Below are positions 1-6,297 of a DNA stretch of 32,091 nucleotides, one piece after another. The DNA comes from an uncultured ANME-1 euryarchaeote. GTDB taxonomy: Archaea; Halobacteriota; Syntropharchaeia; Alkanophagales; Methanospirareceae. Every line of letters starts with the position of its first letter. The stretch's first letter is position 1. The stretch covers positions 1 to 32,091 of the forward strand of contig CBDAFQ010000174.1 in the NCBI GenBank assembly GCA_965195275.1, read 5' to 3'. The translations under genes and the position numbers were made by a program. Below the pieces are notes generated by a model, which was given only the letters and a program-made list of their open reading frames with translations, had not been told where the DNA came from and searched no databases.

Positions 1-1180
<1,180 letters not shown>

Positions 1181-1262
1181 TGAAATTGACAATATTTTGC
1201 ACACACCTACCTTAACCAATCAGATTTACTGGCTATCAAATTAGGCTTAAGTATCCATTGTC

Positions 1263-1333: not shown

Positions 1334-1458
1334 CATATTCTATCTTAACGATTTTTGCAACGCAGAATCTATATATAATGCGTGTCAAAAAAAAACGTTA
1401 CGTACGCCATTAGAGGAATAAGAAATAAATGGAGATGCGCAGGAGAGCGTCATGAAAA

Positions 1459-3918
1459 ATGTACCCTGACGGATTTGCTACGTTGAGAGCGAGTGAAAAA
1501 GAAGCGAATAAAAAGATAGTGAAAGTAGGCGATGTTGAAATAGATCTCGAGGAAGTGGTGCGAGACCTCCGGGGAGTGGAGGACATCGCGGCGGATATAA
1601 TCAAGGAGATGGGCGAAAGGCGGGTGAAACAATGGAAACCAAAATTGAATATCTTAGCACATGCGTCTGACATCGCAGAATGGGATAGTGTGCTTCTGAA
1701 CAGGTATCACCCCTTATACACTAGCATACCGAGTACCCCCACAATTATGGAAGAGTCAATCCAAGCGAAGCTGAGCTTGCAGGACACATGTAAAGGGCTG
1801 TTCAAGCAATTAACATTTGCGCGTGATTTGCTCGAATTCGCTATAAAAGTCTTCGGAAGGAATAGGGAGATTGACATCGGTAGTTCGATCACGTACCCCA
1901 CAATGAACACATCTATGCTAACGGGATTTTACACGAAGAATTTAGATGATATGGATAGAGCGTTATCATACGCAGAAGCGCAACTATCAGAGTTATTACT
2001 CGCCGCTTATTTCGGCTCTGAGAGCGTATTAGAGTTTGAGGAGAAGGCCCTGCATGCAGGCGCCCTTACCTTCCTTGTGATGGAGATAGCGGAAACTATA
2101 AAGATGTGCTGCTTTGAGTTCTTCAATGCTGGTAACCATCCGGCAACGGAATATTCCGATTCCCCACCTGTTGAGATTGAGGTTGGGATGGGTGCAGTTG
2201 ATAGAACAAAACCAGTTATAGTTTTCTTCGGCAATAATTTCCTGCCTGCATGGTTCGCCGTTGAGCACGTAAAGGGAAATGGATTAGAAGATGCGATAGA
2301 GATCTGTGGCGTGGGTGCGGTAGGGCATGACATACCGCGATTTTATAAAGGGGGGAAGGTTCTCACATCCGCAGTAAAGGCAAGGAAGGTGACAAGAGCG
2401 GGCATACCAGATGTAGTTGTTGCCAGTGAGACGTGTCTGGAATTTGATCTGGTGGCAGAAGCGAAGCGAGTAGATGCGAAAGTGGTTGCATATGGATATA
2501 AAGCGGGTAGTGGATTAGAAGACAGGTCTGATGATTCTGTGGATGATATACTCAAAGATATAATGGAGAATGACTTGCCAGGCGTGAGGATAACAATTCC
2601 GGAGAAAGCAGGCGAACTCGCTGTTAAATTAGCGATTGCTATAAAACAAAAAGGGAAGAGAAAAGAGAACTACTTGTTGGCTGAGCTAAAGAAAGAAGCA
2701 TCGAGATGTAACTCATGCGACATCTGTATCGAGGTATGTCCAAATAAGCAGGCAATAAGTAAGGCGATGGATGATGTGAACGCACTCGCAGCTATTTACG
2801 ATAACTGTATATTTTGCGGTCTGTGTGAAAGAGCATGCCCGGAAAGGGTTCCGATAATGGATTTGATTATGAGTGCGGCGGCTACAACAGGTAAGCTAAA
2901 AGGGGATAAATATCTTATGCGTGCTGGCAGGGGCCCTATGTCAGAGTTAGAGTGGCGGGACTTGACGTTTGGGATTATCCTCGGTGGTAACGGTCCCGGG
3001 ATGATTAATATTATAGGCTGTGGGAATTATCCGGGTTCAGAGCGCGAAGTAGCGGAAATAGCGCGATATTTTCTTGAACGGAATGCTCTTGTCACTGTTT
3101 CCGGATGCGTTGCCGCAGATGTTGCGAAATATTTCGATGAAGAAGGCGGTTTTTTATTCGAGCAATATATTGCGGCAGGCGTGCTAAAAGGGTTGGTGAA
3201 TTTTGGCGGGTGCACTGCTATCTCGCATGTGCCCGCTGCGATCTATCGCGGTGCGTTGGTCGGCAGTGGGTACACACCAAAGGCAAACTGGACGCAGGTT
3301 GCCGATTATCTCTATGCGCGATTGCCTGTAGTGGTGATAATGTGGGGTGCCGCGACAGAGGAGATGTACGCAGTCGCATCGGGACTCGTAAGGTCGGGCA
3401 TACCGGTAGTTATCGGTCCTTCCGGCTTCAAGTTCAAAAGATATTTTTTGGGTGATAAAGACGACAGGCGCAAGTGGTGGATGTATGACGGCGTTACGGG
3501 CGAGAAGAAAGAGGTTGAGCCTTGCCCTATGCACATGCTCGTGCCTGTGGATACGAAAGAGGAAGCAATAGCGATGTGTACTAAGTTATTGCACCGACCG
3601 CTTGCGTTGCGGGATCCACGACTTGCGAGTTTAGAAGCGGAGAACGAAGCATATAAAAAGTTCTTTGGCGAATATTCCGATGATTGGCATTTGTATGTGC
3701 GATCAGAGCAGGAATTGCATGTGATGCGGCGTGCGGAATTACTGAGGAAGTTAGGGCAGGAGCATGGCTGGGAGATAGAAGGTATGAAGATTAAGCGGGC
3801 AAGGCATAGGTCCGGGGAACTGATGGATATGCAAGAGTATAACAAAAGATACGGGATACAATTGGGCAGGTATTCGACACTCGTGCCGAGGTTGATAACG
3901 AGGAAGGGTATAGAATAG
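1459..3918 (+). CDS. cdhA: Divergent ACDS/CODH alpha subunit-like protein (CdhA-like), probably not a canonical CO dehydrogenase
   Basis: Collinear with CdhA: WDSVLLNRYHP, EVGMGAVDRTKP, AGIPDVVV, two CxxCxxCxxxCP motifs (E/F clusters), RAGRGP, IIGCGNYP, VSGC, GLVNFGGC, HGWEI. Lacks the N-terminal CxxCCxCxxGPC B/D motif. The true start could be slightly downstream. Confidence 0.9.
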   Translation: MYPDGFATLRASEKEANKKIVKVGDVEIDLEEVVRDLRGVEDIAADIIKEMGERRVKQWKPKLNILAHASDIAEWDSVLLNRYHPLYTSIPSTPTIMEESIQAKLSLQDTCKGLFKQLTFARDLLEFAIKVFGRNREIDIGSSITYPTMNTSMLTGFYTKNLDDMDRALSYAEAQLSELLLAAYFGSESVLEFEEKALHAGALTFLVMEIAETIKMCCFEFFNAGNHPATEYSDSPPVEIEVGMGAVDRTKPVIVFFGNNFLPAWFAVEHVKGNGLEDAIEICGVGAVGHDIPRFYKGGKVLTSAVKARKVTRAGIPDVVVASETCLEFDLVAEAKRVDAKVVAYGYKAGSGLEDRSDDSVDDILKDIMENDLPGVRITIPEKAGELAVKLAIAIKQKGKRKENYLLAELKKEASRCNSCDICIEVCPNKQAISKAMDDVNALAAIYDNCIFCGLCERACPERVPIMDLIMSAAATTGKLKGDKYLMRAGRGPMSELEWRDLTFGIILGGNGPGMINIIGCGNYPGSEREVAEIARYFLERNALVTVSGCVAADVAKYFDEEGGFLFEQYIAAGVLKGLVNFGGCTAISHVPAAIYRGALVGSGYTPKANWTQVADYLYARLPVVVIMWGAATEEMYAVASGLVRSGIPVVIGPSGFKFKRYFLGDKDDRRKWWMYDGVTGEKKEVEPCPMHMLVPVDTKEEAIAMCTKLLHRPLALRDPRLASLEAENEAYKKFFGEYSDDWHLYVRSEQELHVMRRAELLRKLGQEHGWEIEGMKIKRARHRSGELMDMQEYNKRYGIQLGRYSTLVPRLITRKGIE

Positions 3919-3922
3919 AAGG

Positions 3923-5380
3923 ATGACAAAAGAGAAGGTGACAGAAGAAGAGGACCAAGCGAAAGATAGGCAAGAGATATTGGATGCCTTACCCAAAGGT
4001 AAGGTTTATCACGTACCAACGAATCCGGACGATTTTTTCACTGGAATCTCCTATGACATATCACCACGGCAGTCCGGGCAGAGGGTGAGGAAGCATGACA
4101 TGCATTGCGAGTTAGGTGGTCCGAAGCACAGATACAGTAGTTACTTCTTCATCGAGGTGGTGAAAGGAGAGGACAAGATAGAAGATGGACGCGTAGAGGT
4201 GATAGGACCGGAGATAAAGGAAATAGAAGGGCAATCGCTGCCTTTTGGTTTCTGGATACGATATTATGGTAAGGAATTAACAGAAGATTATCTTGATTTG
4301 CTCACTCGATGGACGTATTTCGCATTGGAAGAAGGTGAAGGGTGGATGCTACTTAATACCCGCGACACAATATGGTTGCGATTGCACAAAAAAAAAGCAG
4401 ATAAACATGATTTTGAGCATCTTGGCCAAGCGATGATAAATCTCTGCAAGATACAGTTCCCTCTGGTAGAGAAGGCAGATGCGAAGATTCTGATAGCCAC
4501 TGATGAGTTAGGTGGGTCCGAACTCACAAAGGGAATAATAGATAACGTTTGCATGCCCTACTGGGAGCGAGTGGATAAGCGTGCGAGGGCACTTTCTGAC
4601 GATGACGCAGATACTTTTTTTGGCTGCACTATCTGCCAGACGTTCGCGCCGAGTCATGTATGCGCAGTTGCACCAGATAGACCGCCCTATTGCGGGATAA
4701 TCACATGGATAGGCGCGAAAGTAATGTGTGACCTTGACCCGTATGGATATATATTTGAGATGCCGAAGGGCGAATGCGTTGACCCCGAGGGCGGAGAATA
4801 CGCGGGCATAAATGAAAAGATCTATGAGAAGTCAAATAGGACTTACAAACGCGTGGTTATGTACTCTTCGATAACATATCCTCAGACGAATTGCGGATGT
4901 TTCGAAGCTGCCATATTCTATATTCCCGATGTTGATGGCTTGGGACTGGTAGACCGGAGATATGGAGGGGAAACGCCTTTGGGCTTGACCTTCTCTAAAC
5001 TCGCGGGGCTTATAAGTGGAGGACAGCAGAATCATGGATACTGTGGCATATCATTTAGAACGCCGAGATCGCGTAAATTTGTTCGTGCAGATGGCGGATG
5101 GAATCGTATAGTATGGATGCCAAAGGAATATAAGCAAATTCTTACGGAATTCATTCCCGCAGAGATGTTTGACAAAATAGCAACAGAGGAAGACTGCATA
5201 GACCCAGAAGGACTGAAGGAGTTTCTTAAGCGTGTACACCATCCTGTTGTAACATTGTGGAAGAATGGGGAAACGCCAGACCCTCTGAATTTACCCCCAC
5301 CTAATACGGATTGGGAACAAGAGGAAGAGAAAAAGGCACGAGAAAAAGGGAAGAAGGTATTAGCTATCCTTCCTCTTTAA
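3923..5380 (+). CDS. cdhC: Divergent ACDS beta subunit / acetyl-CoA synthase-like protein (CdhC-like)
   Basis: ELGGPK, GCTICQTFAPSHVC-x9-CG, TNCGCFE and ADGGWNRIVWMP; A-cluster Cys set intact. Starts 4 nt after the cdhA stop (operon). Confidence 0.92.
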   Translation: MTKEKVTEEEDQAKDRQEILDALPKGKVYHVPTNPDDFFTGISYDISPRQSGQRVRKHDMHCELGGPKHRYSSYFFIEVVKGEDKIEDGRVEVIGPEIKEIEGQSLPFGFWIRYYGKELTEDYLDLLTRWTYFALEEGEGWMLLNTRDTIWLRLHKKKADKHDFEHLGQAMINLCKIQFPLVEKADAKILIATDELGGSELTKGIIDNVCMPYWERVDKRARALSDDDADTFFGCTICQTFAPSHVCAVAPDRPPYCGIITWIGAKVMCDLDPYGYIFEMPKGECVDPEGGEYAGINEKIYEKSNRTYKRVVMYSSITYPQTNCGCFEAAIFYIPDVDGLGLVDRRYGGETPLGLTFSKLAGLISGGQQNHGYCGISFRTPRSRKFVRADGGWNRIVWMPKEYKQILTEFIPAEMFDKIATEEDCIDPEGLKEFLKRVHHPVVTLWKNGETPDPLNLPPPNTDWEQEEEKKAREKGKKVLAILPL

Positions 5381-5388
5381 AGAAGAAA

Positions 5389-6297
5389 TCAAACACCTCC
5401 AACGCCCAGGAATTTACCGTCTCGTGAGGGGCTAAGAACGTCTATGTTTAACCGCTTCACCAGTTCTTTATACCTATCTCGGATGGTAATCTCAGTTGTA
5501 CCAGCGACTTTTGCTATCTCCTTCTCCGTTCGATATTCGCCACTTAAAACAGTAGCAATGTATATTGCCGCCGCTGCAGTCCCTATTGGTCCCCAGCCCT
5601 TTGCCATCCCAGTCCCATCATCATCTTGCAGTATCACCATGGCTTTCTCCCTTATCTCCGCACTCAACCCAAGTTTAGAGCAGAAACGTGGGATGTAGCG
5701 TGCGGGATCAGCAGGAGCAAGCTTTATCTCTAATCGCCTTAAAAGGAAAATGTACGCTCTCCTTATCTTCTTTAATGGACTCCTTGAGACCTCTGCCATC
5801 TCTTTCAGTGTTCGTGGAACACCATACTGCCTGCAAGTAATATATAGCATTGCCGAAACTAACTCTTCTATACTCCGCCCCTTGATTAGGCCGCGCTTCA
5901 TTGCTTTCCTATATAATACTGATGTCGCCTCCTTGATGTTATTTGGCAGTCCAAGGGCACATGCCATCCTATCTATCTCAACGAGTGCAAAAGCAAGCGT
6001 CTTATCACTGGAATCTATACTTATCCCTCGTAATCGCCTCGTCCGTGCAGGTAACCCGGGCGTAGGTGTACCCAGCCCTTTGTCATGTATCCTATAACTC
6101 ATAGGAGGACCGGTTCTTATCCTTTTCGAGGCTTGCTCCTCGTCATATGACCGCCACTCGGGTCCAAGGTCCACGATATTCTCAGCGATCACTACCCCAC
6201 AATCAGCACAGTAAAGTTCCGCATGCCGAGAATCCGTTATTACATTTTTTGATCCGCATTCGGGGCATTTCCTTATTCTCTCAGAAATAACTGCCAT
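5389..6297 (-). CDS. tfb: Transcription initiation factor IIB (TFB), probably an alternative paralog
   Basis: Zn ribbon CPECGS...CADCG, GPEWR, HDKGL, LIKGRSIE, PRTLKE, C-terminal HTH TIRDRYKEL. ATG at 6297 preferred over TTG at 6306. Confidence 0.95.
   Translation of the reverse strand: MAVISERIRKCPECGSKNVITDSRHAELYCADCGVVIAENIVDLGPEWRSYDEEQASKRIRTGPPMSYRIHDKGLGTPTPGLPARTRRLRGISIDSSDKTLAFALVEIDRMACALGLPNNIKEATSVLYRKAMKRGLIKGRSIEELVSAMLYITCRQYGVPRTLKEMAEVSRSPLKKIRRAYIFLLRRLEIKLAPADPARYIPRFCSKLGLSAEIREKAMVILQDDDGTGMAKGWGPIGTAAAAIYIATVLSGEYRTEKEIAKVAGTTEITIRDRYKELVKRLNIDVLSPSRDGKFLGVGGV

Follow-up and report, generated by a model that had tools for sequence, protein, structure and literature searches.

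Introduction

CO dehydrogenase/acetyl-CoA synthase is among the most ancient machineries of carbon fixation and has a central place in the metabolism of methane-cycling archaea. In structures of nickel-containing CO dehydrogenases (CODHs), the His and the first Cys of the C-cluster ligand set bind the pendant Fe. Here we describe a gene for a protein resembling CdhA, the alpha subunit of archaeal acetyl-CoA decarbonylase/synthase, in which both of these ligands have been replaced. The gene lies in a stretch of 32,091 nucleotides (the window; contig CBDAFQ010000174.1 of assembly GCA_965195275.1) from an uncultured member of the anaerobic methanotrophic archaea group 1 (ANME-1), and is followed by a gene for a protein resembling the synthase subunit CdhC; we refer to the two products as CdhA' and CdhC'. 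The reading that we favour, with a probability of about 0.55, is that CdhA' belongs to a deep-branching CdhA-like family that gave up CO/CO2 catalysis, lacking the pendant-Fe ligands, the Lys/His acid-base residues and the D-cluster, and that was kept as a dedicated non-catalytic partner of CdhC'. CdhA' would thus probably serve CdhC' rather than make or burn CO.

Sequences of this kind have been seen before. In the text available to us, Inoue et al. 2019 (PMC6344411) describe Cdh-type groups with 'incomplete active-site signatures', A-4 (D, P, Q, R) and A-6 (N, S, H, L, with one F-cluster Cys lost), and state that the B-cluster Cys are conserved 'with a few exceptions'; that text does not mention ANME, and its supplementary membership table could bear on whether ANME-1 sequences were classified earlier. 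The available passages of a preprint (10.64898/2026.07.07.736967) describe an acetyl-CoA synthase (ACS) clade with a structured N-terminal extension in Chloroflexota, Thermodesulfobacteriota, Myxococcota and archaea, whose gene clusters carry CODHs that form an early branching CdhA clade; these passages contain nothing on lost active-site residues, selection, co-occurrence or selenocysteine. In the parts seen, neither source assigns a function to the clade. Elsewhere, a clade D CODH (ChCODH-V) is reported to lack CO/CO2 activity (PMC13056359, in part), and the accessible part of PMC13240472 removes sequences without essential residues and records that clade A includes sequences from Chloroflexota and Desulfobacteriota. 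A literature search for a CdhA paralog in ANME-1 found no paper, and the passages of PMC13079720, retrieved in a search on CdhA in ANME-1, mention no degenerate copy. An earlier reading of the window from its letters alone (the sequence-only reading) had supposed that degenerate copies might already have been noted, and in general terms they had been. The family is therefore already in print; what is new here is the ANME-1 pattern (N, A, Q, E), the repeated loss of the B-cluster, the selection data and the strict co-occurrence with CdhC'.

Results

CdhA' lacks the pendant-iron ligands and the acid-base residues

Canonical copies of both genes are found elsewhere in the same genome (83% complete), so the window pair is a second set: the canonical CdhA (P0003) scores 1235.6 bits against the profile TIGR00314 and has a CdhB gene beside it, and the canonical CdhC (676.4 bits) lies on another contig. 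CdhA' (P0001) matches TIGR00314 over nearly its whole length at 535.6 bits, under the cut-off of 781.3 for equivalog-level membership in this family of catalytic CdhA. Its closest solved match is 8riu_A (450 bits), followed by the CdhA chains of 9c0q and 3cf4. CdhC' scores above the curated CdhC cut-off (434.9 versus 355.95 bits). The window gene is a paralog and not the cell's CODH.

We mapped the metal ligands by aligning CdhA' to P0003 (35% identity), to the solved chains 8riu and 9c0q, and within a single alignment of 91 sequences i.e. 55 members of the CdhA' clade described below and 36 canonical sequences (Table 1). From the complete C-cluster ligand set of one His and five Cys, CdhA' retains four Cys, including C585 at the Ni-binding position; both the acid-base Lys and the His relay are gone, and the loop that supplies the four-Cys B-cluster (C-x2-C-C-x-C-x4-C ... 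C-G in P0003) has been deleted. The row of the window protein reads N, G/A, C C C C, E, plus eight E/F Cys, which is the incomplete-active-site pattern. The sequence-only reading had listed, relative to the canonical enzyme, a His-free stretch in place of HAAHGRH, the replacement of the C-cluster His, of GLCC and of the catalytic Lys, and the retention of the other four C-site Cys and both E/F motifs; the alignments bear out all of these.

Table 1. Coordinates of the features discussed; positions without a locus name are those of the window
Feature	Position	Strand	Remark
CdhA-like gene (CdhA')	1459..3918	+	open frame, 819 aa, intact
Cys-free linker Y87-S100	1717..1758	+	replaces the B/D-cluster Cys loop; shorter
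Former His relay Q117, F120, D123	1807..1827	+	three His (H-x2-H-x2-H) in canonical CdhA
E212, K215	2092-2103	+	invariant in 55/55 clade members; Asp, Gln in 36/36 canonical
N259	2233..2235	+	at the C-cluster His position; from alignments
G286-A287	2314..2319	+	at the Cys-Cys doublet (first C-cluster Cys); G286 invariant in 55/55
C326	2434..2436	+	second C-site Cys, kept; invariant in clade
E/F ferredoxin-like insert	2707..2838	+	eight Cys kept (C417/420/423/427, C450/453/456/460)
C521, C550, C585	3019..3213	+	C-site Cys, kept; inside the most constrained part of the gene
E635	3361..3363	+	at the catalytic Lys (canonical S-Q-K); from alignments
C-terminal extension, residues 776-819	3784..3915	+	clade-specific; absent from canonical CdhA
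CdhC-like gene (CdhC', P0002)	3923..5380	+	485 aa; N-terminal extension, short C-terminal tail
CdhB (epsilon)-like genes, bacteria	L029:5633-6103, L028:5562-6032, L037:3316-3810, L038:8523-8990, L027:8523-9002, L042:8203-8679		between or after CdhA' and CdhC'
TGA-GGN-TGA sites, Desulfobacterota	L027:9888-9896, L028:7083-7091, L029:7163-7171, L036:4602-4610, L037:4856-4864		in the CdhC-like gene

The same losses run through the whole clade. The C-cluster His is absent from 55/55 members (N or D in 52; F, S or Q in three), as are the Cys-Cys doublet (G, then A, S, T or P) and the catalytic Lys (E, T, D or V in ANME-1, L or I in Desulfobacterota, R in Chloroflexota), and all three are present in 36/36 canonical sequences. 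The last four C-site Cys occur in every clade member and in 35/36 canonical sequences, the remaining one (L082) having Arg at the first of them. Because the losses and the four kept Cys are common to 55/55 members, the pattern is not a product of chance.

Could CdhA' still be a CODH, with compensating ligands elsewhere? K215 is a clade-invariant Lys without a canonical counterpart, and C585 has been kept, but the 91-sequence alignment contains no clade-specific conserved Cys or His at any position, i.e. no compensating Cys or His of the kind that the sequence-only reading had allowed for appeared, and the pendant-Fe ligands, the three relay His and the Lys were lost jointly in 55/55. We consider such an enzyme very improbable.

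The residues that are invariant in the clade and specific to it lie close in sequence to the lost ligands (F256, F261, L262, W265, G286, F295, Y296, E212 and K215). A remodelled pocket, with Asn/Asp for the His, small residues for the Cys, E212/K215 and aromatics, might therefore carry out chemistry other than that of CO/CO2, and the strict conservation of the four Cys, the reported precedent of a CODH without CO/CO2 activity (ChCODH-V), and the MoxR-type AAA/VWA and MinD/ParA genes by the bacterial modules (see below), which hint at dedicated metal-centre maturation, would all suit this. However, the Lys and first-Cys positions vary between subclades, unlike a shared catalytic residue, four Cys ligands would leave no cluster iron free, and substrate-related genes are not conserved nearby. 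The new invariant residues are also mostly bulky and hydrophobic; all of those listed except G286, E212 and K215 would fit a filled pocket. A new catalytic site is therefore an unlikely explanation.

A deep CdhA-like family in archaea and bacteria

A word-based search retrieved 52 relatives of CdhA'. Identity to CdhA' declines from 97% (ANME-1/Methanophagales) through 59% (Alkanophagales) and 38-44% to the 31-35% of canonical CdhA; the group at 36-44% consists of Desulfobacterota-type and Dehalococcoidia/Chloroflexota metagenome-assembled genomes (MAGs), as loci from named genomes show. In a 65-row tree, obtained by a quick search and without an inferred root, the 52 clade rows were split from 13 canonical rows with 100% support in the Shimodaira-Hasegawa-like approximate likelihood ratio test, and the window protein fell on the same side of this split as the bacterial sequences of the clade. 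Three CdhA' subclades were found: Desulfobacterota (13), Chloroflexota (19), and ANME-1 with relatives (20). The clade is thus a deep CdhA-like family of ANME-1/Alkanophagales, Desulfobacterota and Chloroflexota, with full-length open frames in all three phyla.

A search of 1.84 billion cluster representatives added more clusters of the CdhA' type. Two representatives, P0087 and P0101, are still more reduced, all four remaining C-site Cys being replaced too; P0101 retains the B-type and E/F Cys, and P0087 retains the B-type Cys alone, the E/F insert having gone. One genome of the sister family carries, besides a pair at 61%/68% identity, a second and distant CdhA'/CdhC' pair (41%/46%), side by side at G006:C44:6161-10514.

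CdhA' is under purifying selection, centred on the synthase-contacting half

The ratio of nonsynonymous to synonymous substitution rates (dN/dS), calculated by the Nei-Gojobori method for ten ANME-1 orthologs, was 0.08-0.16 in 45/45 pairs, far from the values near 1 by which the sequence-only reading would have recognised random decay. Regional values, from six pairs each, were lowest in residues 471-660 (0.03-0.08) and 661-775 (0.04-0.09), i.e. the second Rossmann domain and the C-terminal domain are the most constrained. The same two domains make contact with the synthase in canonical enzymes (10.64898/2026.07.07.736967 and PMC11474084, passages only). The E/F insert gave 0.15-0.26, and constraint was weakest in residues 85-125, which surround the lost loop (0.21-1.04). 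Within the clade-specific C-terminal extension, R784, G786, Y798, G799, G803 and Y805 are conserved.

The AlphaFold2 model of CdhA' has a mean predicted local distance difference test (pLDDT) score of 88.1 and a predicted TM-score (pTM) of 0.91, confidence being low only at residues 1-16, 91-94 (within the Cys-free linker; pLDDT < 50) and 817-819. Foldseek matched it to the CdhA structures 8riu, 9c0r-t and 3cf4 with TMq 0.83-0.85. The structure prediction suggested by the sequence-only reading therefore returns a CdhA fold, and in the model the E/F insert and the C-terminal domain are conserved.

These data also bear on whether CdhA' is a decaying or functionless cdhA duplicate. Its score falls under the family cut-off, it is absent from many ANME-1 genera and its N-terminal region is relaxed, as might be expected of such a copy. 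However, the low dN/dS in every pair, the full-length frames in three phyla, the loss of the same residues in 55/55 members rather than random damage, and the co-occurrence with CdhC' described below leave this explanation with almost no credibility, and we rejected the pseudogene reading on the dN/dS values and the conservation across phyla. With intact frames in 30 of the 79 genomes surveyed below, the view of the sequence-only reading that the gene reflects selective redesign and not decay stands.

CdhA' and CdhC' co-occur and share an evolutionary history

The window CdhC' starts 4 nt after the end of the CdhA' gene and has all of its A-cluster ligands (C235, C238, C247, C257 and C324-G325-C326). 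All seven are found in 26/26 CdhC' sequences, four sequences from Desulfobacterota having TGA at both Ni-ligand Cys positions. In a CdhC tree the 26 CdhC' sequences were split from 16 canonical ones and formed three subclades, matching those of the CdhA tree. Ahead of the core lie 30-67 residues in CdhC' and 12-29 in canonical CdhC, except for the canonical L079 with an N-terminal addition of 213 residues; for the window protein and the canonical copy of its genome the numbers are 49 and 17. All five of the other ANME-1 genomes queried contained a CdhC' (78-84% identity) and a canonical CdhC, and in most of them the CdhC' gene showed no linkage to that of CdhA'.

We surveyed 79 genomes of the class, using identity thresholds of at least 60% for CdhA' and at least 65% for CdhC'. 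CdhA' was present in 30 genomes and CdhC' in 31, with both genes in 29, CdhA' alone in one, CdhC' alone in two and neither in 47; the three with only one of the genes are 59, 61 and 75% complete. Even within a single genus (g4) five genomes had both genes and two (93% and 82% complete) had neither. Canonical CdhA was also found in 25 of the 30 genomes with CdhA'. CdhA' and CdhC' thus co-occur and co-evolve, and the matching trees, the co-occurrence and the short intergenic gap support the functional tie to the adjacent A-cluster enzyme that the sequence-only reading had proposed. Whole genera represented by near-complete genomes do not have the module, which is therefore accessory and lies outside core methane oxidation.

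When CdhA' residues 471-819 were modelled together with CdhC', the predicted complex scored 0.55 (runs 0.52-0.66) and the best control 0.00; at least 54% of contacts were common to the runs and the partner pLDDT was at least 83. A pass required a score of at least 0.32 that also exceeded every control by 0.20; 58 of 80 solved complexes and 2 of 110 mismatched pairs passed, and the passes at or below 0.60 comprise seven of the 80 solved complexes plus both passing mismatched pairs. The prediction was run on alignments of our own, so that these benchmark counts are only rough. The predicted complex gives weak support to an interaction, since a similar complex has been solved (9c0s/9c0t) and the pass may only mirror likeness to it.

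Electron-transfer clusters have been lost repeatedly in ANME-1

The sequence-only reading had taken the loss of the B/D Cys loop as part of the redesign of the protein. This holds for the window protein but not for the family, as 46/55 clade members have a 4-Cys B-type motif. The nine without it are the window protein and L007-L011, L013/L016, and L039, and the sister lineage L012/L015 retains it. The deletion boundaries differ between these three groups; a careful tree placed three state changes for the motif, of which well-supported branches force at least two, and an approximately unbiased (AU) test rejected a single clade of the nine B-less sequences (p 0.010), with the caveats that the group was named after the tree had been viewed and that the loop's own columns were left in. 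Loss of the B loop is a recent event with at least two origins within ANME-1, and not a trait of the family. The ANME-1 protein L039 (L039:5944-8202, also G012:C1:183993-186191; 752 aa) has neither the B-type motif nor any part of the E/F insert but keeps the four C-site Cys. Judged by these sequences, electron-transfer clusters have been lost repeatedly in ANME-1 and the four C-site Cys never.

These observations weigh on the proposal, also made in the sequence-only reading, that CdhA' is an electron relay or reductive activator, in which electrons would move between the A-cluster of CdhC' and the surface clusters by way of a 4-Cys cubane at the ex-C site. The four C-site and eight E/F Cys have been kept, the B-type motif of most members could complete the wire, and electrons are described as entering canonical CdhA at its surface through the F-cluster (PMC11474084, in the passages available). 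However, the B loop was deleted recently and at least twice, which argues against a relay through the ex-C site in the window protein; constraint on the gene is weakest around the lost loop, E/F is also missing in L039, and the accessible part of the review PMC9782325 still lists E/F as 'of unknown function'. The link that such a relay needs is thus missing from the window protein, and we think it improbable that the relay explains CdhA'.

Bacterial modules

In Desulfobacterota the CdhA' gene is followed by one for a protein of 155-164 aa and then by that for CdhC'. This small protein resembles CdhB (TIGR00315 39.2 bits, below the cut-off; 25-28% identical to the genome's own CdhB), and similar genes stand between or after CdhA' and CdhC' in several bacterial loci (Table 1). 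The operon of the window has no epsilon (CdhB) gene, and in its genome (83% complete) a profile of the bacterial CdhB-like proteins matched only the canonical CdhB; it thus seems that the module has lost its small subunit in ANME-1.

At L028:8254-10962 a MoxR/chelatase-type AAA ATPase gene and then a gene for a MinD/ParA-family P-loop ATPase stand beside the module, and at L042:3206-5416 an AAA-VWA fusion lies between the module genes. These are possible candidates for dedicated metal-centre maturation factors; no such genes were seen near the window genes. The Dehalococcoidia loci L040, L044 and L046 carry tandem CdhC'-CdhA'-CdhC'-CdhA' arrays, the two CdhA' copies of which belong to different Chloroflexota subclades, and the other strand beside these arrays encodes a conserved Fe-S protein of 165-172 aa whose N-terminal Cys motif is of the CdhE/RnfB type. 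Chloroflexota neighbours are otherwise varied (methylmalonyl-CoA mutase, short-chain dehydrogenase, aldehyde:ferredoxin oxidoreductase, FMN reductase), and no corrinoid protein was found among them.

In all five Desulfobacterota loci with a downstream CdhC-like gene, the Ni-binding Cys-Gly-Cys of the A-cluster is encoded by TGA-GGN-TGA (Table 1). As the frame is conserved past the TGA codons, it may read selenocysteine-Gly-selenocysteine (Sec-Gly-Sec). The sequence from about 29 nt past the first TGA forms a conserved hairpin whose loop is GGU, and a SelB gene adjoins the operon in 2 of 13 loci (L029, L035). The selenoproteins listed in the accessible parts of two selenoproteome reviews (PMC13188914, PMC9312934) include no ACS beta or CdhC. 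A short contig of an archaeal MAG (G074:C213:15-1364) also has a CdhC'-like frame with two TGA codons, and may come from a bacterial partner.

Genomic context and RNA libraries

An archaeal 16S rRNA gene occupies window positions 1-1180 on the minus strand (its 5' 1176 nt, 1156.8 bits; the contig end cuts it), and the CdhA' gene starts 279 nt from its 5' end in divergent orientation. Two open reading frames at 329-601 and 677-1183 (+), considered as small subunits, were rejected because both lie inside this rRNA gene of the opposite strand. No conserved neighbours of the module were found in ANME-1, the flanks being housekeeping genes that vary between genomes. As to a second corrinoid Fe-S protein set, the window's genome yielded one clear CdhD locus and one weak match, and at 83% completeness this leaves its absence unproven.

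RNA-library contigs from four runs of two studies cover CdhA' and CdhC' at 90-99% likeness; strand, ends and level are not readable from them. One of these contigs (4752 nt) spans 1387-6126 and reaches an oppositely oriented TFIIB gene. This makes DNA carry-over possible, and we counted the contigs as presence only. Contigs from both studies match the window from about position 1387 (1387-1399) onwards and have unrelated sequence upstream, which suggests that in such close relatives CdhA' may not adjoin the rRNA gene.

Discussion

We propose that CdhA' acts as a non-catalytic docking subunit for CdhC'. By homology the four conserved Cys would hold an ordinary [4Fe-4S] cluster, the plain 4-Cys cubane envisaged in the sequence-only reading, which remains a tenable inference. 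The second Rossmann domain, the C-terminal domain and the C-terminal extension would hold CdhC' closed, as canonical CdhA holds CdhC, and the surface E/F clusters may feed in low-potential electrons that activate the A-cluster. In the lineage of the window, where the B loop has been deleted, the ex-C-site cluster would be cut off from E/F and is probably structural. The sequence-only reading had also offered sensor and scaffold roles as candidates.

Several points weigh against this proposal. Binding of CdhA' to CdhC' is a prediction only, and most ANME-1 genomes carry their genes at separate, unlinked loci. The eight E/F Cys are still under purifying selection despite the missing B loop, so that E/F must still do something, which a pure scaffold role leaves unexplained. 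The strict conservation of the four Cys across about 36% identity could mean more than a structural cluster, and E212 and K215 could belong to a new active site. Finally, the module is absent from many near-complete ANME-1 genomes, for example those of the whole genus g5, and the RNA-library contigs over CdhA' may derive from DNA, so that its transcription is putative.

A bolder version of this proposal, which we put forward tentatively and with clearly less confidence, is that CdhA'/CdhC', together with the CdhB-like subunit in bacteria, form a separate ancient nickel enzyme, whose A-cluster chemistry has been uncoupled from CO2 reduction (e.g. acetyl-CoA synthesis or cleavage with free CO, or carbonylation with other partners). 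CdhA' would then be a pseudoenzyme that ANME-1 is stripping of its electron wire step by step, and the Desulfobacterota partner would carry Sec-Gly-Sec.

If the CODH half is indeed dead and yet kept, then either the synthase has a task for which CO need not be produced locally, or canonical enzymes conceal a structural or activating function of their large subunit. The presence of the module in some ANME-1 genera (g1, g6, g11, g13) and not in others (g2, g5, g12) offers natural comparisons for its role. To judge from their residues, counts of 'cdhA' genes in metagenomes would also include copies that are unable to oxidise CO.

Comparison with known systems

The ChCODH-V protein shares with CdhA' the CODH fold, a changed C-cluster ligand set and an active CODH in the same organism. 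By its description in the part of PMC13056359 available, it is set apart as a CooS-type enzyme that has no paired ACS and has lost only one Cys, whereas CdhA' lacks two ligands and the acid-base residues.

With canonical CdhA (3cf4, 8riu, 9c0q-9c0t), CdhA' shares the fold along almost its entire length, the E/F insert, the C-terminal domain, four C-cluster Cys and an adjoining CdhC-type gene. Unlike canonical CdhA, the window protein lacks the B/D Cys, the His relay, the C-cluster His, the first Cys and the Lys; its gene has no adjoining epsilon gene, and it carries the extra conserved C-terminal extension.

As far as the text of PMC6344411 goes, A-4 and A-6 are, like CdhA', Cdh-type without a D-cluster motif, with His, first Cys and Lys replaced and the last four Cys and E/F kept; matched by residue patterns only, our Chloroflexota branch shows the A-4 pattern and our Desulfobacterota branch the A-6 pattern. 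The N, A, Q, E of the window protein fits neither, and its B-cluster is missing as well. The clade in the preprint passages (10.64898/2026.07.07.736967) occurs in the same taxa and likewise pairs a CdhA-type protein with a CdhC-type protein that has an N-terminal extension and no long C-terminal tail, which is the arrangement found in the window.

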